Origin: Candidatus Heimdallarchaeota archaeon
Lineage (GTDB): Archaea; Asgardarchaeota; Heimdallarchaeia; Heimdallarchaeales; Heimdallarchaeaceae
Assembly (NCBI GenBank): GCA_016839945.1
Contig: JAEOTE010000056.1
Location: 1 to 40,165 of the forward strand
DNA: 40,165 bases
Direction of reading: 5' to 3'
In this document: positions 19,203-38,762 of the stretch, piece by piece
Layout of the letters: every line of letters begins with the position of its first letter
Position numbering within the stretch: the first letter of the stretch is position 1
Notes under the pieces: generated by a model
What the model was told of the DNA's origin: nothing
Databases searched by the model: none
What the model saw: the letters and a program-made list of their open reading frames with translations, nothing else
Position numbers and translations under genes: made by a program

Positions 19203-19850
19203 TTATTGTTCCAAATCAGCTTTGCATTTAGGACATTTATTTTCAATCTTCTTTATTTCATGAAAGCAATTCCAGCATATTTTGCTAGAAGGTTTCTCAA
19301 GAGAATAAACTGATACTTTCTCTTTAAATCCTTTTATAAACAGTATAGCTTGACTCTTTCTAGTTTTCCTTTCTCTTGTCACTATTATGTTAAGAATAAA
19401 ATACAAAACAATTGCAGCAGAACCTATACCTAGTAAAACAAAACCTGGAATTCTTAAAGAAATTGAACTAAAGAAACTTAAAACAATGAATGGAACTAGA
19501 ACTAGTGTTAAAAGTAACAGAATAATCCATAAACTGTACCTCAAACCTAAGAATTCTTTCTTCATCCAATTGTTCAACGAGCTAGGAACCAAGGTTTGAC
19601 TGTAACTTGATTCTATATTTAGGATATTATTTTCCTCCAAGTCTTCCACTAATACAGTGATTCGACCAAATCCACTTCTAAAATATATTTTTAATTGTTT
19701 AGGGTTAGATTGATCTACTTTGTAACCTTGTTTCTCATATTCTTCATTCAAATAATCAAACAACATAGAGATATCTTTGATATTACATCTCAACTCATCA
19801 GATTCAAGAATATCTCTTATCTCATCTTGATTTATAATGGCTTTCACCAA
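19203..19850 (-). CDS. Two-TM membrane protein with C-terminal Zn-ribbon
   Basis: Hydrophobic hairpin at about aa 107-158; CWNC-x10-CPKC. Confidence 0.75.
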   Translation of the reverse strand: MVKAIINQDEIRDILESDELRCNIKDISMLFDYLNEEYEKQGYKVDQSNPKQLKIYFRSGFGRITVLVEDLEENNILNIESSYSQTLVPSSLNNWMKKEFLGLRYSLWIILLLLTLVLVPFIVLSFFSSISLRIPGFVLLGIGSAAIVLYFILNIIVTRERKTRKSQAILFIKGFKEKVSVYSLEKPSSKICWNCFHEIKKIENKCPKCKADLEQ

Positions 19851-23543: not shown

Positions 23544-24386
23544 ATGACCCACTCCAGCAAAGATATCATGATATCTGCATTTGCTTTAGCTAAGATATTA
23601 TCAGTTGATGCTTTGGATACTTCAAAGGAATCTGCTGGAGTCTTAATTGGTTATTTTGATGAGAGTAGAAAACAACTAGTAATTACAGACTTTGATACTG
23701 GAAAGCAAAAACAAACCTCAACTTTTGTAGTATTAGATGATGAAGCTCTTGTTCAGATTGTTGAAGATCTACAGAATAGAGAAAGAAATGAATCGATCGT
23801 GGGTTGGGCGCACACCCATCCTTCTTATGGATGTTTCCTTTCTGGAACAGACAAAAGCACTCAAAGAACATATCAAAATTTATTCTCACAAGCTGTTGCA
23901 CTTGTAATCGATCCTTCAAAGTACTATGAAACTTCGCAGCAGAAAGATTTAGAGATTAAATTTTTTAGGCTAATAGATGACTTTGATTATCGTGCAATTC
24001 CTTTTGGAATATATTTTGATGACATAACTAAACATCTTTCCAATTTAGCAGAAATTGATTTGAAGTGGGAACTTCCCCAATTAGCTGAAAGTGAAGTTAG
24101 GGCTCTACATCAAAAATTAGAATCTGTTGTTTCTCCATCTTTGTTAGAAAGTGATAAACAACTTCTACATGGTTTTGTTGATGTTCTAAGTGAAACTAAG
24201 GAACAATTTGTTGATAGTGGAGAAGGGAAAGAGATACTTGAATCAATTGATGAAAAACTAAGTGACATATCGACGAATGTAACGCAGATATATAATGAGG
24301 AAACGTTTAATCTTTATGCTGCTTTAAACATTGTAGCAGTTGTAATAATTGCAATAGCTTGGTTTTTAATAGCATACTTCACATAA
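23544..24386 (+). CDS. JAMM/MPN+ metalloprotease (Rpn11-like) with helical linker and C-terminal TM anchor
   Basis: KESAGVLIG (catalytic E); VGWAHTHPSYGCFLSGTD (HxH-x7-S-x2-D); AVALVIDP; terminal TM LYAALNIVAVVIIAIAWFLIAYFT. Confidence 0.88.
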   Translation: MTHSSKDIMISAFALAKILSVDALDTSKESAGVLIGYFDESRKQLVITDFDTGKQKQTSTFVVLDDEALVQIVEDLQNRERNESIVGWAHTHPSYGCFLSGTDKSTQRTYQNLFSQAVALVIDPSKYYETSQQKDLEIKFFRLIDDFDYRAIPFGIYFDDITKHLSNLAEIDLKWELPQLAESEVRALHQKLESVVSPSLLESDKQLLHGFVDVLSETKEQFVDSGEGKEILESIDEKLSDISTNVTQIYNEETFNLYAALNIVAVVIIAIAWFLIAYFT

Positions 24387-28616: not shown

Positions 28617-29756
28617 TTATTTTTTAGCTATGTTTCGTATTATTGATACGATTAAGAATACTATGTATGCTACTAGGAAATTAATCAGAAGTAGATTAGT
28701 AAATTCTGTAAATAATGTAAACCAAGTTGAAGTTCTGATATAGAAAAAGTCTGCAGAACCAATAGCATTCTGAAAGATGTAACTATATGCACAAATAGTC
28801 AAGAATGGTGCAATATTCAAAGTTAAATAAGCTCCTTCATAATTTAGTCTCATAAAGTTAGTTGTTCCTGATGCTCTTTGATATATAATAAGTGCTATAC
28901 CAATACCAATGACAAATCCAACAATTGGTAGGATGTAAAATACATTCAGAAGTTGAACTGCCATAAATCCTCCTGCAGTGGTTTTTGCAAAGATTGAATT
29001 TAGGAACTGAGTATTAGTATCCCCAAATATTGAAACCGCAGTAGATTGGTTAAAGTTTACATGTGATAGAATTATGAACAAGAGAGCACCTACAATGCTT
29101 AAGAAAATTAATAACTGACCAAAAATCTCCTTTTTCTTACCTGTTTGTTCAGCTGAAATTTTCCTTCTTGACAGAATAAAGAAAACTACTATGTAAATTG
29201 CTGAAAAAACTGCAACTATCAAGTCATAAACTGGAAATCCACCAATTGTCTCTCCGAAAGCAATCCCTACAGAATTTTGATGGAAATTATTTTGTGCTTG
29301 TTCTAGACTTGCAACCATACTTACACCAGCTCCAATCACACCTTGCAGACCTATAACAATTCCAGTTACAAGAAGTGCTGTTCTTCCAGTTATACGCATT
29401 GTTGCAAACCATCCAGCGAAAAATGCTGTTATCATGTAAATAATTACCACAGCTATGAAACCCTTTAATGCAACTGTAGAATAGGGATCGTAGAAAGATA
29501 AAATTGCTGCTGTACTAATAAAAATAGATGATACAAGGTTTTTAGCTATAGCACAAGAAACCAGAATAATGGCTATTGTGAAGGTTATTGTTGCAGGAGA
29601 TATCCATTCCCAAAGCGTTTCAATTTGCAGTATTCCTAACCATGGTAATACAAATTCAGTGAGTGCTACTAAAGCAATCCCAAAGAATGTTGCTATCAAT
29701 GCTCTTTTTGTGAAAAACTGCCCAAGATGAAAGTATTTAATGTCTGACATATACAT
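28617..29756 (-). CDS. Polytopic membrane protein (about 9-10 TM), unknown function
   Basis: Alternating long hydrophobic segments throughout. Confidence 0.75.
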   Translation of the reverse strand: MYMSDIKYFHLGQFFTKRALIATFFGIALVALTEFVLPWLGILQIETLWEWISPATITFTIAIILVSCAIAKNLVSSIFISTAAILSFYDPYSTVALKGFIAVVIIYMITAFFAGWFATMRITGRTALLVTGIVIGLQGVIGAGVSMVASLEQAQNNFHQNSVGIAFGETIGGFPVYDLIVAVFSAIYIVVFFILSRRKISAEQTGKKKEIFGQLLIFLSIVGALLFIILSHVNFNQSTAVSIFGDTNTQFLNSIFAKTTAGGFMAVQLLNVFYILPIVGFVIGIGIALIIYQRASGTTNFMRLNYEGAYLTLNIAPFLTICAYSYIFQNAIGSADFFYIRTSTWFTLFTEFTNLLLINFLVAYIVFLIVSIIRNIAKK

Positions 29757-29837
29757 CGTTTCTCTTTTGTTGTTTTAACTGATTAAGAAATAATATGTAC
29801 TATGGTAAAAAAAAGATTTTGGGTGTAGGAAGAGTGT

Positions 29838-30215
29838 TTACCTTCTAGGTTTTATTGACATCATTGTTGTTCCAATGAAGGTAATTAATCCTGAAGCTGC
29901 TGCAATCATAATAACAGCAATGCCACTTAAGACAGTGTTGAGTGCTTCATAATCTCTTTGCCAGATTGCTAGATAGATTGTAAGTAGAATTAAAGCAGCT
30001 AGCATAAAACCTGTTAAAACCAAATAAGCATTCTTCTCTTCTGTTCTAAAAACAGCTGATACAGATCCTAAAGCGAATCCACCAATGATTCCTATTCCTA
30101 GGTAAAAAAGGAACCACCAAAACTGATCAGTTAATTGAACTACTGTAATAATTACACCAAAGATTCCAACAGCTGTTAAAGCTCCTCCAATAAAAGACGC
30201 AGGTCTTGCAGCCAT
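29838..30215 (-). CDS. Small 4-TM membrane protein
   Basis: Four hydrophobic helices; GAGGT RBS. Confidence 0.75.
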   Translation of the reverse strand: MAARPASFIGGALTAVGIFGVIITVVQLTDQFWWFLFYLGIGIIGGFALGSVSAVFRTEEKNAYLVLTGFMLAALILLTIYLAIWQRDYEALNTVLSGIAVIMIAAASGLITFIGTTMMSIKPRR

Positions 30216-30461
30216 AATAAATACCTCAATATTCCTAACTAACAGCTTTGTATATTAATATTTCTAAATACTTTACTTGAAGTTTTAAGACAACATCGCA
30301 GATTTACAAGAAGACTGAATGTCTTAGGGAAGCATATTATCTCATAAGATACTTTACAATAAGATGGGTATTGAATGCTAAAGATGCAGGTGTTCAAGAA
30401 TATTATCTTCTAATAAAGTGGACCTTTTAAAAAGAAAGTGGGCTTTGCAACACTATGAAAA

Positions 30462-31367
30462 TCAAGATTTTGTGTTTTGTTTCTTCTTCTTTTTAATTTT
30501 GAATCTATCAAAGACAATTGATAAAGCTAAATCCAAGTTCCTAATCACATGAAAGATACGTCCAAGTCTAACATACATCCTCCTTATAGCCTTAATAATG
30601 CTATTTTGTTCAACTATTCCTATTTCATAGTAGAGGTATTGTTCTTTTTCCTTGCCACTAATACAAATCTTTCCAAGAGGATTAGTTATTGTTAACCAAC
30701 CATTCCAATAATGACCACCTTCCTCACCAAACCGATTTGCATTAATTAACCACGCATCATAACTTCGAGAAAGAAACCCAATTCCAAACCACCTTGGATC
30801 TTTATCATCTGCTAGGCTATGAATAATCAGTTCAAGTTTACTTTTTCTCAAAGTTTTGTTAACTTCTTTACTTTGAACATCATAGCAAATAACTATGCCT
30901 GTCTTAATATCTTTAATTTGAATAACTGTTACAGGTTTTTCTCCTGGAGTAAAAAATGATTCTCTCATTGCTCTTTTACGGTGAACTGCAGTAATATTAC
31001 CTAAAGGATCAATCAAAACTTGAGAGTTGTAAAAATCTTCCTTCTCCTTTTCATTGATTCCAAAACTAATGTATACATTGTATTGTGCTGCAAGTTTAGA
31101 CATTATATCTGTAGTTTTACCAGGTATAGTTTCAGCAATTTTGTGATGATATTCAGCTGTTTTTTTGAAATTAAAAAACCAACCATGAATAGTTTCTCCA
31201 AACACTATTAATTCAACATGTGGGTGATTCTGCTTTATCTCTTCTATGAAATTAGTCATTTTTTGTAAATTCTTTTCTGGATTTTCATCACAAATCATAG
31301 CAGTAGTTGCAATTTTGAGATGTTTATTAGCTTTTGAAATATTGTATAGCTTTTTCATTAGAACCAT
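30462..31367 (-). CDS. Carbon-nitrogen hydrolase (nitrilase superfamily)
   Basis: Catalytic triad E (VFGET), K (HRKR), C (ICYD). Confidence 0.9.
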   Translation of the reverse strand: MVLMKKLYNISKANKHLKIATTAMICDENPEKNLQKMTNFIEEIKQNHPHVELIVFGETIHGWFFNFKKTAEYHHKIAETIPGKTTDIMSKLAAQYNVYISFGINEKEKEDFYNSQVLIDPLGNITAVHRKRAMRESFFTPGEKPVTVIQIKDIKTGIVICYDVQSKEVNKTLRKSKLELIIHSLADDKDPRWFGIGFLSRSYDAWLINANRFGEEGGHYWNGWLTITNPLGKICISGKEKEQYLYYEIGIVEQNSIIKAIRRMYVRLGRIFHVIRNLDLALSIVFDRFKIKKKKKQNTKS

Positions 31368-31528
31368 CTGGTAAAGTTCCTATTAAAGTACTAATAAGCA
31401 TTATCAAATATATGTATCCATTCAGTTGATTTGTGATTGAAAACATTTTTTATTCTCTTTTTCTGTTCAATCGAAGTCTTTTAAAACACTAGTCCTCAAT
31501 CTTTTTTGTAGTTGAGGAAGATTAGAAA

Positions 31529-31578
31529 TAAGTAATTATTTTGTTTAAGTTTTTTTCAACACCCTAAATAATTGCTTA
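31529..31578 (+). promoter_or_regulatory. Structured 5' leader hairpin of the DEAD-box helicase gene
   Basis: TAAGTAATTATTT (31529-41) pairs with AAATAATTGCTTA (31566-78): 13 bp including one G-U. Confidence 0.5.
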
Positions 31579-31629
31579 GAATCATACCTCAAGAGAATTG
31601 ATACTTGATTTTAGGTTAGACTATAAAAA

Positions 31630-32874
31630 GTGATATCAATGAAATTTCAAGATTATAATTTAAACAGTCAGTTAAAACGAGCTTTAGAAGATATGGGGAT
31701 TCATACTCCAACCAAAATACAGAGAAGATCGATTCCTCAACTCCTTGATGGGGGTAGAACACATGTCCTAGCTCAAGCTAAGACTGGAACTGGAAAAACA
31801 CTAGCATTCTCCATTCCTATTGCTAACCAGATTAGTCTTAAACAACGCTCAGTTCAGGCAGTCGTACTAGTACCAACTAGAGAATTATGTAAGCAAGTAC
31901 ACAGTGTTGTTAATAGATTGACGATGTACAGAAAATTAAAAACTGTAGAGGTTTATGGTGGAGTCTCCATCGACAGGCAAAAAAAAGAGATTAAAGCTGG
32001 TGCTCAAATTGTTATAGCTACTCCTGGAAGACTTATGGATCTTTACAGAAGAAGAGTTATTTCCTTCAGTAACGTAAAATTTGTTGTTTTAGATGAAGCT
32101 GATAGAATGCTTGATATGGGATTCTTACCTGATATAAAGTACATCCTGTTTGATGCAATGAAAGGTGTCTCACCTCGCTTATTATTGTTCTCAGCAACAA
32201 TGCTTAAACAAATAACAAAGATTGCTCGTCAGTTTACCAATGGTGAAAAGTTGGTTGAAATAAATGTGAGTAAAGATGATATAACAGTTGCAAACTGTAA
32301 GCAGTATTATTACAAAATCAAAGATTCCAAGCAGAAATATTCTACTTTTGTTTCAATTCTTAAGGAGGAAAAACCCAAATCTTCAATTGTTTTTGTTAAC
32401 ACTAGACGATGGGCAGACAAACTAAGAAAACGCTTATCGCAGGAAAAAGGTCTCAATATGAGATTCAACACATTACATGGAGACAAAACTCAAAGACAAA
32501 GAGAACTTGTTTTGAAAGATTTCAGAAAAGAAAGATTTGATTGTTTGGTAGCTACAAATGTTGCAGCAAGAGGTTTAGATCTCCCGAAAGTAACACACGT
32601 TTTCAATTTTGATTTGCCAAAGGAAGGACCGGAAATATATGTTCATCGAATAGGAAGAACCTCCCGAATGGAAAATGAAGGAAAAGCAATTTCATTTGCT
32701 ATTAATGACCAAATGAAAATGCTTCGTAAAATAGAAACTTTCATGAAAAAACCAATACAGAGGCTTTATTTCAACGTTAGAACTGAAAAAAACAAACGTC
32801 CCAAATCATATCAATCCACAAGTTTTAGCGAAGACAGAAAGAATAGTCAACTTGCTCTACACGCAAGTGATTAA
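31630..32874 (+). CDS. DEAD-box ATP-dependent RNA helicase (DeaD/CshA-like)
   Basis: Q motif PTKIQ, AKTGTGKT, PTREL, TPGR, DEAD, SAT, ARGLD, HRIGRT. Confidence 0.96.
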   Translation: MISMKFQDYNLNSQLKRALEDMGIHTPTKIQRRSIPQLLDGGRTHVLAQAKTGTGKTLAFSIPIANQISLKQRSVQAVVLVPTRELCKQVHSVVNRLTMYRKLKTVEVYGGVSIDRQKKEIKAGAQIVIATPGRLMDLYRRRVISFSNVKFVVLDEADRMLDMGFLPDIKYILFDAMKGVSPRLLLFSATMLKQITKIARQFTNGEKLVEINVSKDDITVANCKQYYYKIKDSKQKYSTFVSILKEEKPKSSIVFVNTRRWADKLRKRLSQEKGLNMRFNTLHGDKTQRQRELVLKDFRKERFDCLVATNVAARGLDLPKVTHVFNFDLPKEGPEIYVHRIGRTSRMENEGKAISFAINDQMKMLRKIETFMKKPIQRLYFNVRTEKNKRPKSYQSTSFSEDRKNSQLALHASD

Positions 32875-32876
32875 AC

Positions 32877-32902
32877 TGAGAGATATATTTCTATATTTCT
32901 CA
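32877..32902 (+). terminator. Hairpin directly after the helicase stop (terminator or stability element)
   Basis: TGAGAGATATA-TTTC-TATATTTCTCA, 11-bp stem with one G-U. Confidence 0.5.
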
Positions 32903-32986
32903 CAAAATTACATTCTAATCTGTAAAACTTCACTTATTTCTGAAATCTATTCTGCTGATTCTCATTTGAAAAAAGTCTTCATACTC

Positions 32987-33721
32987 TTATTTTGCTGAAA
33001 AATCTTTTACAATTTGACCATCACTCATGTATAATTGCCTATCAGCTAGGATTGCCAATTCATTGTCGTGAGTCACAAAGACTAAAGTCTTTTTCTTTTC
33101 CTTACTTAGTTCTAAAAGAAGATTGATTATCTTATCTCCAGTATCAGAATCTAGATTTCCTGTTAGCTCATCAGCTAAAATCAATTCAGGATCATTTGCT
33201 AAAGCTCTGGCTATTGCTGTTCGTTGTTGCTCCCCACCGGAAAGTTGATCTGGTTTATGATTCTTTCTGTCATACAATCCTACTGCTTTAAGTAATTCCT
33301 CAGTTTTCTGTTTTCTTTCTTCTTTTGGTCTCTTTGCTAATATCATTGGCATTTCAATATTCTTTTCAGCATTTATCTCCTCTAGTAGATTGAAATTTTG
33401 AAAAACATAGCCTATAATTTCCCTTCTTAAATAGCTTAGTTCTTTTTCTGATAATGTGCTTAACTTCTGACCATCTATTGAGATGTTTCCTTTGTCTACA
33501 TAGTCTAATGCACCAATAACATTGAGTAAAGTGGTCTTACCACTACCTGATGGACCTACTATTGAAATTATCCCTCCTTTCTTTATAGATATAGAAACCT
33601 CATCAAGAGCTTTTACTTCTACTTCTCCCATTTTATAAGATTTTGAAACTTTCTCCACCTTAATGAATGTCTTATCTCGTTTTCTTTTTGAGCTTCTAGT
33701 TTTTTTCTTCTCAGGTGGCAT
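32987..33721 (-). CDS. ABC transporter ATP-binding protein (LolD/MacB-type)
   Basis: GPSGSGKTT, GYVFQ, LSGGEQQR, ILADELTGNLD, VTHD. Confidence 0.93.
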   Translation of the reverse strand: MPPEKKKTRSSKRKRDKTFIKVEKVSKSYKMGEVEVKALDEVSISIKKGGIISIVGPSGSGKTTLLNVIGALDYVDKGNISIDGQKLSTLSEKELSYLRREIIGYVFQNFNLLEEINAEKNIEMPMILAKRPKEERKQKTEELLKAVGLYDRKNHKPDQLSGGEQQRTAIARALANDPELILADELTGNLDSDTGDKIINLLLELSKEKKKTLVFVTHDNELAILADRQLYMSDGQIVKDFSAK

Positions 33722-33743
33722 CTTTGCTTATGTCTCCAAACAA

Positions 33744-34067
33744 TTATATTTGTTTATTGTTTGTAGGAAATCTTTCTCTCATAATATTTATTTCCTTTCT
33801 CCAAGATTCTTCTAAATCTATATCAAGAAGAATGCACAATTGCAAGAACAAAGAAAAAGCTTGAGCAAACTCTCTAGTCATGTCCTCTTTAGGTGGTTCC
33901 TTATGTCCTTGTTCCTCTTTTTTATATTCTGAAAGAAATAATAGATACTTTCCTATTTCTCCTAATTCTTCAATCAAATGAATGAAAACATCATTTGGTG
34001 AATACTTTAACCAGTCCCTCTCTTGTAGAAAATAACGAACTTCTTCAACTATTTCGCTTAATTCCAT
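33744..34067 (-). CDS. MazG-like nucleotide pyrophosphohydrolase
   Basis: FLQERDW, LIEELGEI (EExxE), EFAQ; AGGTGA RBS. Confidence 0.8.
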   Translation of the reverse strand: MELSEIVEEVRYFLQERDWLKYSPNDVFIHLIEELGEIGKYLLFLSEYKKEEQGHKEPPKEDMTREFAQAFSLFLQLCILLDIDLEESWRKEINIMRERFPTNNKQI

Positions 34068-34079
34068 ATTGTCACCTTT

Positions 34080-36146
34080 CTATGTTGCATACGCTTTCAG
34101 TGTTTGCATTGTAACCTTAGATTTACATATTGGACATTCTTCTTTTATTTTTAACCACTGAAACATATGATCATTATGTGCTAGATTTGAACATTGAGGA
34201 CATTCAAGAACTGTATCTCCGTGTTTAATAAGTCCTTGACAAACTGAGCATTTTTCTGGTATTTGATTACAATTGCTACAAGGTTCATAAGCTGACTTGA
34301 TTAAATTGCCACAGCTTAAACAATGCATTTTACGTGATGGTAAAACTAGTTTTCCTATTTTCTCAAAATAAGTAGAGGTTATAATTCCTTTATAATATCC
34401 ATGAGCAGCTAATTGTGTGACTATTCTGAATATATCTCTTTCAGCTAACGATGATTTAGTTGCGAGAGTACTTATTTTCACTCTCTTTCTTCTTGATTTT
34501 TCTATTTCATTCACAATTTGAACATATTGTTCCCCTAATTCTTCTAGATCTCGAGTAGGGAGAAATTTCTGAAAAGATATAACATAGAAGGAATTTCCGC
34601 TTAGTTTCATATTTAATAATCCAGAGCCTGTTATCTCAAAAACTATGTTTTTAACTGCTACTGATGATTTACTCCAAAGTTTCTGAAGATTACTTAGTGT
34701 AACTCTTTTATTAGAAATTATATATCCAAATATCTCTTGATAATGAATTGGTAGATCATCCAACTGAACCAAAGGTGGAAAGATTGGTATCTCATCAGGT
34801 TCGAGTTTGTTTCCTGAAATATTCCCTTTAATTAATCCCTTGCCGTAAAATGCATAGAGTTTTTCCAATGCAAAATATTTGTCAACTCCTAAAGCTAATG
34901 CAATGTCTTTAACACTTATACTTGATTTAGCAACAACCATTCCTAATACAATCTTTTCCCATCTCTCCAAAGTTCCCTCTTGAGCTCTGCTATATCTTCT
35001 AATGACATCAATGTAAAGGGTGTTACCTTTCAATGTGCAAGATATAAATCCTTCAAGTGATAAAGTAATGACTCCTTCTAGAATTTCACCAACTGATCTG
35101 TTCATGAGTGACATAAGTTTTTTCAATGGAATTTTATCTTGAGTTGAAATTAATCCAAAAAGAGCTTCATAATTAAAGAAAGATAAAGTTGCCATCTCTT
35201 CAATAGTTCTCTTTGGTCTTAGATCTGGAATAACTACAGGTGTAATATAGTTTGCTTCAGTAAAAATGAATTGAAATGTTCCTCTAGCAGTAAGGAGTGC
35301 TAGGACTTTGCTTGCTTCTAAAGGTTCCATATCCATAAATTTCGCTAAATCTTGAATGGATGTTTTCTTCTTTAGAATTACATAACCAACAGCTTCTTTT
35401 TCCTTACCTTGTAGAGCTTCTAAAGGAAGAATTCGAGGTGAAATATGGTACTTGTTTACCGTAATTACAACTTTTGGAAAACCAATAAGTTGCGATTCAA
35501 TATCAAATTTTGCATCTAATTTTCTGTACAACATCAATCTTGCAATTCTTTCAATAACTTCTTCTTTTGAAAAATTAGTACGCTTTGCTACTTTACTTAT
35601 TTCTGCATTACGTAACATCATACATATTCCTACAATGAAAGTGTCCTCTGTTGCAATTGTTGCCTTTTCTGGAGGTTTCCAAATCCAATCAGGTATTATC
35701 TCGTTATCTTTAATTCTCCCTATGAATAATCCTCTACTGATTAGAAATTTTAGATTTTCTTCCATTTCTTCGGTTGAGATCTCAACTATTTTAGATATCT
35801 CACTAATCTTTACTTTTTTATTATAAACCAATAATCCAAGAATGTTTTTTCTAACAGCACTAAGTCTACCGGGTTTTATTTCAGGATGTTTAAAAACGGC
35901 TGAAACATTGAATTTGTTTTTTCGGTAGTAACCTCTAATTACAAGTAATTGAATTAAGTGTTGAACAAAAACTTTGATTGAAGAAATTTCAATTTCATGA
36001 TCTTCTGCATACTTTGATAATACAACTCCTCTATATAATAAGAGATGAGTGAGAAGGTGAGTCTGTTTTGCTTTGGATAGAGTTATTTCAGGAAGATCAA
36101 GTTTTGAGAAATTTAAATTATAAACATCTTCTCTTTCATAACTCAG
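34080..36146 (-). CDS. Tandem PCI-like winged-helix repeat protein (8 repeats) with C-terminal Zn-ribbon and RING finger; putative E3 ligase
   Basis: Frame stays open upstream of the called TTG (35831) to TAG at 36171-73; proposed CTG start 36146 (688 aa) behind GAGCTGAT; RING C-x2-C-x12-C-x2-C-x4-H-x2-H-x10(W)-C-x2-C. Confidence 0.78.
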   Translation of the reverse strand: MSYEREDVYNLNFSKLDLPEITLSKAKQTHLLTHLLLYRGVVLSKYAEDHEIEISSIKVFVQHLIQLLVIRGYYRKNKFNVSAVFKHPEIKPGRLSAVRKNILGLLVYNKKVKISEISKIVEISTEEMEENLKFLISRGLFIGRIKDNEIIPDWIWKPPEKATIATEDTFIVGICMMLRNAEISKVAKRTNFSKEEVIERIARLMLYRKLDAKFDIESQLIGFPKVVITVNKYHISPRILPLEALQGKEKEAVGYVILKKKTSIQDLAKFMDMEPLEASKVLALLTARGTFQFIFTEANYITPVVIPDLRPKRTIEEMATLSFFNYEALFGLISTQDKIPLKKLMSLMNRSVGEILEGVITLSLEGFISCTLKGNTLYIDVIRRYSRAQEGTLERWEKIVLGMVVAKSSISVKDIALALGVDKYFALEKLYAFYGKGLIKGNISGNKLEPDEIPIFPPLVQLDDLPIHYQEIFGYIISNKRVTLSNLQKLWSKSSVAVKNIVFEITGSGLLNMKLSGNSFYVISFQKFLPTRDLEELGEQYVQIVNEIEKSRRKRVKISTLATKSSLAERDIFRIVTQLAAHGYYKGIITSTYFEKIGKLVLPSRKMHCLSCGNLIKSAYEPCSNCNQIPEKCSVCQGLIKHGDTVLECPQCSNLAHNDHMFQWLKIKEECPICKSKVTMQTLKAYAT

Positions 36147-36259
36147 TTTTATCAGCTCTAAAATGTTACTCTAATATTGATAATCATGACTTATTAACCT
36201 TACTTTATTAATTAATGATGTTAAACAAAAGAAAAATGAAAAGAAGAGAATCCAACAAA

Positions 36260-38146
36260 CTAAATTTTATTCATTCTTCTTTTTTTTCTAGAAAAATAGC
36301 TACTTAAAGCAATTGTAGCTATTATTGTAGCTGTTATGCCAAAGGGTGAAAGTTGCGGAGTCGTTTGTGTTGGTAATTCTATAATAAAAACAACAGAAGT
36401 ATTGAATTGATTTCCTGCTTTATCCACAGCCATAACAATCACACTATACTCGCCACTTAAAACATAATTGTGGTAAGCATAGTTTTCATCTGTGACATTA
36501 GACACTGTTCCATCATCCCAATCTATGTAGACATACCATACTCCAGAATAATCATCACTGTAGTTGAAATATAACTCCACATATCCATCTGTTATATTTA
36601 CAGAGTTATCAGTATGAGATAATATATTAGCATCTGGACCATCAAAATCCAAGATGATATGAGTAGAAATGTTATTTGATGTTCCCAATGAATTATTCAC
36701 ATAGAGTGTTGTAGTGTATCTATTAGTAACAACTGCATATGTATAATTGAATGAGTGAGTTTCATCAAGAGGTAGTATATCCAATGGGGAACCATCATCA
36801 TAGTCAAAGAGAACACCTGTGATATTTCCTCTAGCTAATTCAATTTCATAAGAAAATGTAATCTTTTCATCATTGAAGTATGTTTCATTCAAAGGTCTAA
36901 GTGTTAGTTGAGGACGCGAATCATAGATATTTAAGAAATATAACGCACCCGTTGTTTCGTTGTAAATCTCCCCATAATAAATATTGTATGCTTGATAATA
37001 AAGTCTGTTTCCAACATCATACGGTCCCAGTAAAAGAGAATATTCTCTTACAGTATCATTGTTACCATTGCCTTTTGTCACATTATATTCTGTCTCAAAA
37101 ATGGCTTCTTCCATGGTCCAAGAAACAATTTCTGTATCATTTGTCGAACTTTCTACAACATAATACCCAATTCCAAAAGTTTCAGAATCGGTGGCGTTGT
37201 ATGATGTAATAGTAATATTAACTTGATCAACTTCAGTGTGAGGTTCTGATAGAAATGTTTTGGATTCAAAGTGAAACCCATTGTTTATTTTGTAAACATT
37301 CAATGTTTCTTCTAGCAACCCCGTATCTCCCCATGTATCCCATCCATATGAGTTGTTAGCACTGAAATAAATCGTTCTTTCTGATAGAGTCAATGTTGTA
37401 TTGAATACTTCATATGTAGATGTTGATATATTTGCCCAAACCATAGGTATGAATACAATCTCACTATCAAATATGTCTAAAGAAGCGTTTGTAATTTTAT
37501 CACGATAAACAGATAATGCAAGAGTCACAGAATCATTTTCTGTAGCTCCATATACTCTGTATGAGATAACTATTGTATGATTTGTTTTGTTTGCGGGTGA
37601 ATAATATACATAAGGAACTCCTGTTGTTGTTGCGTTTATAATAGAATGGAAATCAGGGGGAGTACCTTCTTCATTTACATAGAGATAATGCCATGGACCT
37701 AGATGATTGAAATTCTCCAACTGTTCATAGGTGCCATTTGTGATATCTCCTATCCATCCATATGCTTTGAAGTAAGCGTTTTCTGTAAGCTTAAAAGTAC
37801 CTGTGTAATATGAACGCTCTTTGATTGATTCTGAGAAATTCAAAGCTAAACCATTACTTGGATCTAGCTCAAAATCAGAACCATTTCCAACTAAAACAAT
37901 TCCACTTAAATCACCAGAATAAAGACGACTAATTGAGTACTCTACGGTTATTAGCGTACCATTTGGGAAATTAATTTGTTCTTCACTTTGAGCACCTTCT
38001 CCAATTAGGTTTTCAAGAATCGGTTCAGAACTTACAATGTATGCTGTTGTATGTAGTGTTTGATTTACCACAATACTAAACAGAAATGTGGTTATTATTA
38101 GTAATGCAAGTGCTTTGTTTTTCTGCAATCTCTTCACTTCAACCAT
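36260..38146 (-). CDS. Secreted surface glycoprotein with PKD domain(s) and C-terminal sorting/anchor signal
   Basis: Signal peptide after MVEVKRLQKNK (start moved to ATG 38146); IDWDDG...HNY...GEY...AVDKAGN PKD; tail TTPQLSPFG + TM + RKKRR. Confidence 0.8.
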   Translation of the reverse strand: MVEVKRLQKNKALALLIITTFLFSIVVNQTLHTTAYIVSSEPILENLIGEGAQSEEQINFPNGTLITVEYSISRLYSGDLSGIVLVGNGSDFELDPSNGLALNFSESIKERSYYTGTFKLTENAYFKAYGWIGDITNGTYEQLENFNHLGPWHYLYVNEEGTPPDFHSIINATTTGVPYVYYSPANKTNHTIVISYRVYGATENDSVTLALSVYRDKITNASLDIFDSEIVFIPMVWANISTSTYEVFNTTLTLSERTIYFSANNSYGWDTWGDTGLLEETLNVYKINNGFHFESKTFLSEPHTEVDQVNITITSYNATDSETFGIGYYVVESSTNDTEIVSWTMEEAIFETEYNVTKGNGNNDTVREYSLLLGPYDVGNRLYYQAYNIYYGEIYNETTGALYFLNIYDSRPQLTLRPLNETYFNDEKITFSYEIELARGNITGVLFDYDDGSPLDILPLDETHSFNYTYAVVTNRYTTTLYVNNSLGTSNNISTHIILDFDGPDANILSHTDNSVNITDGYVELYFNYSDDYSGVWYVYIDWDDGTVSNVTDENYAYHNYVLSGEYSVIVMAVDKAGNQFNTSVVFIIELPTQTTPQLSPFGITATIIATIALSSYFSRKKRRMNKI

Positions 38147-38207
38147 GCTTTGTAGATGGTATTTAAAACTATTTTTATTTTTAGCAACTTTAGCATCTTT
38201 CGAATTA

Positions 38208-38762
38208 TTAAGATTGATAAGTGAAAGAATCAAAAACAACAAATGCTACGGAGCATCCATATTTTTTCTTAACTTTTAAGAAAGAACTAATTAGTTTGAA
38301 ACCAGCTTCACCCCAACTCTCATCAATAACACCTTGACGATGTTTAATCATAGCTCTCACTCCTTGAATAGCTAGTTGTTCTGTCTGATTTAGGTCACTC
38401 CCTATTTCTTCATATGCAAGCATACATTTTTCTGTGACACTATTAATTTCAACATTTATTTTTGCTAAAGCAACGCAACTTGCTAAATTCTCTCCTGTTT
38501 TTCCTGTATTCATTGCTCGAACAACATGAATAACCGAACTAAGAGGTAATAGTTTCCATTCATTATTGCAAAGAACATGAGTTGTTCCTTTATGAGAATC
38601 AATTTTAGGTGATATCTCATTAATGGGTGGAATAGAAGAAACTACAACAAGGTTTTGATATCCTAATCCAGAATTATGAAAAGCTGAATCGATAGCTTCT
38701 AGTTTTGATCTGTCTGATTCTCCAATACCTGCAGTTAGCCAGAATCTAGTAGGTGTTGACAT
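38208..38762 (-). CDS. pdaD: Pyruvoyl-dependent arginine decarboxylase-like proenzyme
   Basis: FWLTAGIGE, AIDSAF...GLGYQNLVVVSSIPP (S-S cleavage site), C-terminal YGCSVAFVV. Confidence 0.8.
   Translation of the reverse strand: MSTPTRFWLTAGIGESDRSKLEAIDSAFHNSGLGYQNLVVVSSIPPINEISPKIDSHKGTTHVLCNNEWKLLPLSSVIHVVRAMNTGKTGENLASCVALAKINVEINSVTEKCMLAYEEIGSDLNQTEQLAIQGVRAMIKHRQGVIDESWGEAGFKLISSFLKVKKKYGCSVAFVVFDSFTYQS

Follow-up and report, generated by a model that had tools for sequence, protein, structure and literature searches.

Long tandem arrays of winged-helix (wH) domains are known from UFL1-DDRGK1 (UFBP1), the human ligase for UFM1 (PDB 8b9x, 8c0d, 8ohd and 8qfc), in which the array serves as the scaffold of an E3. 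UFL1 and DDRGK1 have been reported to have arisen in Asgard archaea before UFM1 existed, a published finding that has been left unexplained (PMC10183829), and an archaeal cascade of E1, E2 and RING protein has already been reconstituted (PMC5654768). Here we describe a gene on the minus strand of contig JAEOTE010000056.1 of Candidatus Heimdallarchaeota archaeon (assembly GCA_016839945.1), located at positions 34080..36155, stop codon included, of a stretch of 40,165 nucleotides (hereafter, the window), which encodes a protein of ~691 amino acids (aa) with eight wH domains, a zinc ribbon and a RING finger. From its sequence and structural models, we consider it probable that the product is a RING-type E3 ligase, made of a single chain and located in the cytosol, that acts with ubiquitin or with a closely similar modifier of the ubiquitin-like kind. 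Its scaffold is probably most like that of the human UFM1 ligase, and is probably not a horseshoe of the proteasome-lid kind partnered with a nearby JAMM protease.

A literature search found no description of an architecture that combines eight wH domains with a zinc ribbon and a RING, and the protein differs from each of the systems that it partly resembles. In the UFM1 ligase, UFL1 has no RING and recruits UFC1 by its own N-terminal part, whereas here the ribbon and the RING follow the array; two chains share a composite wH there, whereas this protein is one chain; and the domain-to-domain geometry of the two does not superpose (root mean square deviation (rmsd) 13.9 over 125 residues). The catalytic RING-H2 ligases (ARK2C/RNF165, Arkadia/RNF111, RNF24, RNF126 and EL5) and the small RING protein of Caldiarchaeum have the same cross-brace fold, and the RING-H2 ligases also share W-L after ligand 6, a C-P-x-C-[KR] ending and a hydrophobic residue after Cys1. 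Compared with these ligases, the present RING is C4H2C2, with C-x2-C at ligands 3-4, is preceded by a C4 ribbon and is fused to a 600-residue wH array rather than forming a small protein by itself. The PCI domains of the proteasome lid, the COP9 signalosome (CSN) and eIF3 are similar in their wH half (E = 3e-3 for Rpn6, and 2e-3 to 6e-3 for CSN2), but have one wH per subunit, as opposed to eight in one chain here, where the helical-repeat half and the C-terminal helix bundle are both lacking. Nse1 of SMC5/6 has the same wH-wH-RING order, and the RING-matching chain of PDB 7qcd, an SMC5/6 holocomplex, scores Z 6.3, but Nse1 has two wH domains rather than eight, ScpB-type matches are weak (rmsd 12), and the window holds no SMC or kleisin context. 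Finally, the C-terminal tails of the coat-like proteins of IFT-A (WDR19/IFT144), GATOR2 (MIOS, WDR24 and WDR59) and the yeast SEA complex consist, as here, of a zinc ribbon directly followed by a RING, with similar sequence and fold. Those proteins have a beta-propeller and an alpha-solenoid, whereas the body of this protein is made of eight wH domains without either; the likeness is to coat-like tails in general and to no one complex, and the E2-contact residues are conserved in this protein.

The C-terminal module comprises a C4 zinc ribbon (34266..34346, minus strand; C-x2-C-x10-C-x2-C) and a RING finger (34083..34265, minus strand) identified from sequence and fold matches and from conserved hallmark residues. 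Counted in the 696-codon open frame described below, the ribbon ligands are C617, C620, C631 and C634 (CLSC-x10-CSNC), and the RING reads C641-x2-C644-x12-C657-x2-C660-x4-H665-x2-H668-x3-W672-x6-C679-P-I-C682, which gives eight ligands in a cross-brace arrangement with the spacing C-x2-C-x12-C-x2-C-x4-H-x2-H-x10-C-x2-C. A preliminary description of this DNA had already noticed the CLSC-x10-CSNC motif and a C4H2C2 RING with the conserved Trp and CPIC; these elements are indeed present, and all 12 zinc ligands, the four ribbon cysteines among them, are invariant in the 58 members of the family. The residues expected to contact the E2 are almost as well conserved: the second residue after Cys1 is V or I in all 58 members, the Trp is kept in 56, Pro follows Cys7 in 58, and Lys or Arg follows Cys8 in 55. 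These positions are the equivalents of I383, W408 and P417 of c-Cbl and of the RNF4-type linchpin. Pfam zf-RING_2 matches 54 of the 58 members, and, among PDB sequences, the RING matches the catalytic RING-H2 domains of ARK2C/RNF165/Arkadia (E = 4e-7 to 1e-5). In a separate model of the ribbon and RING (pLDDT 86.4), the isolated module is matched by Foldseek with probability 1.00 to Rad18, RNF165 and Ring1b, and the top 50 rows of a Foldseek-independent search, VIA-align, are almost all RING or U-box E3 domains (Z 5.5-7.9), many of them solved with E2s.

The genome encodes components with which such a ligase could work, canonical UBC-type E2s among them: four UBC-fold proteins (UQ_con matches), two ubiquitin-fold genes and three ThiF/E1 genes, the best E2 being 37-41% identical to eukaryotic UBE2D/E. 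E2 genes are located at 10306-10668 of contig C4 and at 24268-24744 of contig C69. The ubiquitin-system genes lie in two clusters on other contigs (C129, 7-1810, and C69, 24268-29710; loci L014 and L015), one with ubiquitin, E1 and an E2-like gene, and the other with an E2, a second JAMM/MPN protease, a ubiquitin-fold gene and an E1. UFC1 and Ufm1 had no match in this genome, which is 88% complete, and the UFC1 search matched nowhere, controls included. Co-folding of residues 537-691 with the best E2 gave weak support, with a score of 0.55, compared to 0.00 for the best control, a value that may reflect likeness to many solved RING-E2 complexes more than binding. Of 80 solved complexes, 58 pass the mark used for these co-folds, as do 2 of 110 mismatched pairs; at scores of 0.60 or less these comprise only 7 of those 80 solved complexes and both of the passing mismatches. 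Between runs, at least 89% of the contacts are shared, and the pLDDT of the partner is at least 87.

The extent of the gene follows from comparison with its homologues. The open frame on the minus strand runs from 36170 to 34083 and has 696 codons; a mechanical listing of open reading frames (ORFs) reported only a 583-aa ORF with a TTG start at 35831, because the frame holds no ATG, GTG or TTG upstream of 35831. Judged from end-to-end alignment with 691-aa homologues, the called ORF is a truncated version of the gene. The initial Met of the homologues aligns with Leu6 of the 696-codon frame, that is, with CTG at 36155-36153; in an alignment of the start regions of 9 loci, other species have ATG or GTG at this position, and the same CTG is kept in an independent genome that is 92% identical (locus L002). 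A second CTG, at 36146-36144, is replaced by ATG in one 90%-identical relative, and a TTAATAA box lies ~35 nt upstream of this start region (36144..36155, minus strand). From the start-codon positions of the relatives and the shared CTG, it follows that the upstream 105 codons belong to the gene, and the start is probably CTG, or the adjacent ATA, a non-canonical codon rather than a sequencing error. The end coordinate given in the preliminary description, 36146, corresponds to the second CTG, while most homologues start at the position of 36155-36153.

Upstream of the zinc ribbon, an AlphaFold2 model built on the alignment of the 58 family sequences (mean pLDDT 89.8, pTM 0.75) predicts eight units of the form H-H-H-beta-beta, followed by the short zinc ribbon and the RING, with the wH domains packed into one body that is modelled with confidence; what a pTM of this size shows is that the domains are placed in a definite way relative to one another, and no more than that. 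Counted from the CTG start, the wH domains span residues 28-87, 100-158, 169-236, 250-306, 318-385, 398-453, 470-528 and 542-599. The following positions, all on the minus strand, are based on the secondary structure of the model and on profile comparison. The first domain, wH1 (35880..36092), lies wholly upstream of the called ORF and matches the other repeats with E = 1e-8 to 1e-11; wH2 (35670..35873) is cut by the called TTG and holds the best stretch for Pfam PCI; and wH3 (35436..35663) has a long wing. They are followed by wH4 (35226..35423), wH5 (34989..35192), wH6 (34785..34976), wH7 (34560..34763) and wH8 (34347..34547), of which wH5 matches the wH of CSN2, and wH8 that of DDRGK1, with the family profile. 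To compare the repeats with each other, the family alignment was cut into eight units and the 28 pairs were compared, profile to profile, by hhalign. All 28 pairs scored at 94.7-98.6% probability (E = 6e-8 to 7e-16), and we therefore judge the eight repeats, from their profiles, to be homologous and not alike by chance. The tandem repeats of the preliminary description are thus borne out by AlphaFold2 and hhalign as eight wH domains, one upstream of the called ORF and one cut by its TTG, and the same holds for its proposal of a single chain in which these are joined to a zinc ribbon and a RING with the hallmarks of an E3.

Conservation within the array is highest in wH5 and wH6. At their junction lies the loop Y-S-R-A-Q-E-G (34974..34994, minus strand), in which the Ala is the one residue of seven that varies in an alignment of 16 sequences; the other six (Y393, S394, R395, Q397, E398 and G399) are invariant. 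Model residues 391-394 are the sole internal stretch with pLDDT <50. The loop is a candidate functional or docking motif.

We then considered what kind of wH the repeats represent. Of the wH families in Pfam, PCI (PF01399) alone exceeds its cut-off in this protein (27.1 bits vs. 22), and it is the most frequent family after zf-RING_2 among the 58 members, with matches in 39 of them (best E = 2.7e-14). The scores, however, add up from weak, partial matches within the wH half of the PCI model, which also matches in 4 of 14 control prokaryote genomes. Each repeat is a bare wH of 65-75 aa with three helices and a two-strand wing, and no unit of the AlphaFold2 model contains the helical-repeat N-terminal half of a PCI domain; hence, the repeats are not PCI domains proper. 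When a pooled profile of 144 repeat copies was searched against PDB sequences, the best match was the wH of DDRGK1 (E = 1e-9 to 2e-7), followed by Lrp/AsnC regulators (2e-4), Rpn6 (3e-3) and CSN2 (6e-3), so that DDRGK1 matches five orders of magnitude better than any DNA-binding wH. The whole-family profile likewise retrieves CSN2 (E = 0.0018, in wH5) and DDRGK1 (E = 0.002). Pfam DDRGK matches 5, and E3_UFM1_ligase 2, of the 58 members, and this protein itself falls below the thresholds of the DDRGK and UFL1 models.

In structural comparison, single-domain searches place the wH domains of the lid and CSN (Z 8.8-9.3), MarR/ArsR regulators (Z 8.3-9.2) and DDRGK1 in a tie at Z 8-9.5. Whole-chain Foldseek lists the tandem-wH proteins TFIIIC, UFL1/DDRGK1, SelB and RPC82/62, with UFL1/DDRGK1 among the top hits and TM-scores of only 0.07-0.25. 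In whole-model fold searches, matches to single domains prevail, and none of the solved tandem-wH proteins can be superposed rigidly over its length. ESCRT-II (EAP30/Vps25), cullin and APC2 have no entry among the listed Pfam, PDB-sequence and fold matches, an absence from the lists that does not exclude them. A profile of the wH array alone, searched against an index of 5.8 billion proteins, returned family members only, with the 8000 closest candidates kept, which makes this search uninformative on eukaryotic UFL1. Taken together, we read the repeats as bare wH domains of the eukaryotic scaffold type that are, by sequence profile, nearest to those of DDRGK1/UFL1. The label ‘PCI-like’ used in the preliminary description has Pfam PCI and its 39 members on its side, but it holds only loosely given the bare wH units, the weak summed matches, the structural tie and the closer match to DDRGK1. 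That description had also named DNA-binding helix-turn-helix families as the match that would speak against its proposal; by sequence these are not the closest (1e-9 for DDRGK1 vs. 2e-4 for Lrp/AsnC), whereas by structure they are tied. Elsewhere in the same genome, an 860-codon frame that contains the genome's best Pfam PCI match (26.9 bits; contig C177, 52467-52658, minus strand, locus L037) may be another wH-containing scaffold protein.

These features point to a likely scaffold-plus-RING E3. In the mechanism that we propose, the C-terminal zinc-ribbon-RING cassette would recruit a ubiquitin-charged E2 (E2~Ub), and the wH array would act as a scaffold for docking of substrates or partners, as the array of UFL1-DDRGK1 does. 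The likely docking site would be the most conserved surface, which extends from wH5 to wH7 and includes the YSR.QEG loop.

Several observations weigh against the assignment as a ligase. The C4H2C2 ligand pattern is a variant of the canonical C3H2C3: the fourth RING ligand is the Cys of a C-x2-C, and the canonical His position is Asn in 40 of the 58 members. The gene is not linked to either of the two ubiquitin clusters (C129 and C69). The repeats tie in structure with DNA-binding wH domains. Over ribbon and RING together, the tails of WDR19/IFT144 (E = 1.8e-5), MIOS (1.5e-4) and WDR24 (6e-4) are also found with the family profile, and the tails of GATOR2 are assembly elements that are not known to be ligases.

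The last of these observations leads to an alternative in which the protein is a non-catalytic scaffold, with a tail that pairs with like tails in the manner of GATOR2/SEA and IFT-A, and with a role as a structural subunit of a larger, possibly membrane-associated complex. Besides the profile matches, Foldseek ranks the GATOR2, IFT-A and SEA tails first for the isolated module (WDR19: TM 0.62, rmsd 3.1 over 82 columns), and possible partners with like tails exist among Asgard proteins, one of them in the same genome (contig C149, 48837-49094). The ribbon-RING cassette forms the C-terminal end of many other Asgard proteins, the N-terminal parts of which vary: PQQ/FG-GAP beta-propellers with TSP3, a NosD-type beta-helix, and ~1000-aa bodies of unknown kind. 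Such variety suggests that the cassette-bearing Asgard proteins are a family of receptor-like RING proteins and supports a modular logic of ‘recognition domain plus RING’; it also sustains the alternative in which the cassette is an assembly element. The carriers that we noted are P0093, P0096, P0098, P0101 (~1000 aa), P0134, P0146 and P0155, and one propeller protein has a pilin-like N-terminus. Three comparisons speak for catalysis instead: the four E2-contact positions are conserved in 55-58 of the 58 members; catalytic RING-H2 domains are the better match by sequence (4e-7 vs. 1.8e-5); and in the Foldseek-independent search the top matches are catalytic RING/U-box domains, with the GATOR2 match at an rmsd of 10. 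We regard a purely structural role for the tail as unlikely.

Still less likely, in our estimate, is that the wH array primarily binds DNA or RNA, in the way of TFIIIC, RPC82/RPC34 or SelB, so that the protein would be a regulator or a chromatin or ribosome factor with ligase activity as a secondary property. TFIIIC, SelB and RPC82/62 are in the whole-chain Foldseek list, single domains match MarR/ArsR regulators as well as they match scaffold proteins, the protein has a net charge of +23 with every wH neutral to positive, and homologues are annotated at source as ‘transcriptional regulator’ or ‘TFIIE alpha’. By sequence, however, no DNA-binding family comes nearly as close to the repeats as does the wH of DDRGK1, which serves in a protein scaffold; a positive charge is expected in a Lys-rich proteome with 32% G+C; the matches to tandem-wH nucleic-acid binders have, in addition to their low TM-scores, an rmsd of 15-38; and an invariant RING would be left unexplained.

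The preliminary description had favoured a single-chain PCI horseshoe that could work with a tail-anchored, Rpn11-like JAMM protein encoded ~10 kb away, as in the PCI-MPN assemblies of the lid and CSN. A JAB/MPN (JAMM) gene with a C-terminal transmembrane segment is indeed present at 23544-24386, and most genomes of the family have the orthologue at a distance of 6-13 kb from the ligase gene; a conserved partnership, on the other hand, did not emerge, since in one genus of the family the distance grows to 37 kb, and in all eight sister-family genomes compared the two genes are on different contigs. The genes between JAMM and ligase have unrelated functions (cofE, folP, a GHMP kinase, a STAND-like ATPase, a nitrilase-family hydrolase, a DEAD helicase and an ATP-binding cassette (ABC) module), and the link is inherited family-level synteny and not a conserved pairing. 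We regard this model of horseshoe and JAMM partner as very improbable: although the repeats score best, among the wH families of Pfam, with PCI, and the wH domains of Rpn6 and CSN2 appear in the sequence and fold lists, the helical-repeat half of PCI is absent, the Pfam model matches control prokaryotes too, the linkage to JAMM breaks down between families with functionally unrelated genes in the interval, and one of the ubiquitin clusters on other contigs has a JAMM of its own next to an E2. The JAMM gene group also includes, at 19203-19850 (minus strand), a 215-aa protein with three predicted transmembrane segments and a C-terminal C-x2-C...C-x2-C finger (weak zf-RING_4 match, E = 4e-4).

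Returning to the predicted scaffold-type ligase, we identified 42 relatives in a search of 5.8 billion proteins, most of them exactly 691 aa long and covering 97-99% of the open frame, from Heimdallarchaeaceae and from other bins labelled ‘Heimdallarchaeota’ or ‘Asgard group’. With this protein as query, all 28 genomes of its family yield a full-length copy, as do nearly all genomes of the three sister families in the order, with frames of 685-700 aa and 22-28% identity in the sister families. A few genomes in other classes also have a copy, and most other Asgard genomes match in the RING cassette only.

The gene neighbourhood was compared across 20 loci of ~20 kb by clustering of their ORFs. 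Within the family, the order is glnA, the ligase gene, a 107-aa all-helical protein, an ABC ATPase, a 125-aa protein with four transmembrane segments and a 379-aa protein with about nine predicted ones. In the window, this membrane module occupies 28617-34067 (minus strand) and consists of the 107-aa protein, which has no Pfam match, a MacB/LolD-like ABC ATPase, and the 125-aa and 379-aa membrane proteins. Its four genes, contiguous in relatives, are here interrupted by a DEAD-box helicase (31630-32874, plus strand) and a nitrilase-family CN-hydrolase (30462-31367, minus strand). The ABC module also occurs within a few kb of the ligase gene in several sister-family loci, where the gene order is pdxS-pdxT, ligase, then directly the orthologue of a 660-aa glycoprotein, and then an S8 subtilase. 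At one sister-family locus (L034, 6128-6832, plus strand), the gene three positions upstream of the ligase gene, ahead of pdxS-pdxT, codes for a 234-aa protein that weakly matches Longin (E = 7e-4).

The glycoprotein of the window is a 660-aa PKD-domain surface protein (36260..38242, minus strand) with a signal peptide, N-glycosylation sequons (29 here, and 25-34 in the group) and a C-terminus composed of a Thr/Pro-rich stalk, PF[GA], a transmembrane segment and a polybasic end. The gene is present at 15 of the 20 loci and remains a neighbour of the ligase gene throughout the order, but its position flips, from upstream of the ligase gene here to directly downstream in the sister families. Genomes carry one or two copies, and in five genomes examined for this the best copy lies ~100 nt to ~2 kb from the ligase gene. 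That this linkage survives rearrangement at ~25% identity of the ligase suggests a functional tie, not necessarily a physical one, and the linkage to a surface glycoprotein and an ABC-type module is a loose hint that the ligase functions at the membrane. As a possible substrate of the ligase, we considered the glycoprotein's short Lys-rich tail, and set it aside: the C-terminus resembles a sorting signal of the archaeosortase type, and such a signal would be cleaved off.

Among prokaryotes, no group known is more closely related to eukaryotes than the Asgard archaea, and the RING proteins in descriptions of Asgard ubiquitin systems have, to our knowledge, mainly been small ones that stand alone. 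If the ligase assignment is true, a conserved 691-residue ligase with an eight-domain docking scaffold would mean that substrate-specific scaffold-type E3s are older than eukaryotes. Since the predicted ligase is soluble in design, is confidently modelled and has its own E1, E2 and ubiquitin genes, the claim is directly testable in vitro. Some family members match the Pfam DDRGK and UFL1 models, and so may be what was detected as UFL1/DDRGK1 in Asgard archaea (PMC10183829); the ligase would also offer an experimental handle on the reported Asgard origin of these proteins. A further-reaching scenario, which we put forward as speculative and unlikely to hold in full, is that the family would be the surviving archaeal form of the ancestor of the UFL1-DDRGK1 scaffold, a RING-dependent ubiquitin ligase with a wH array docking on a large target such as a ribosome or a membrane complex, and that the eukaryotic stem lineage would have lost the RING, split the protein into two chains and re-wired it to UFM1/UFC1. 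In that scenario, the zinc-ribbon-RING cassette would have given rise to the tails of the coat-like complexes; apart from it, the cassette, which is present here and on many other Asgard proteins, is a candidate for the prokaryotic origin of the tails in GATOR2, SEA and IFT-A subunits.

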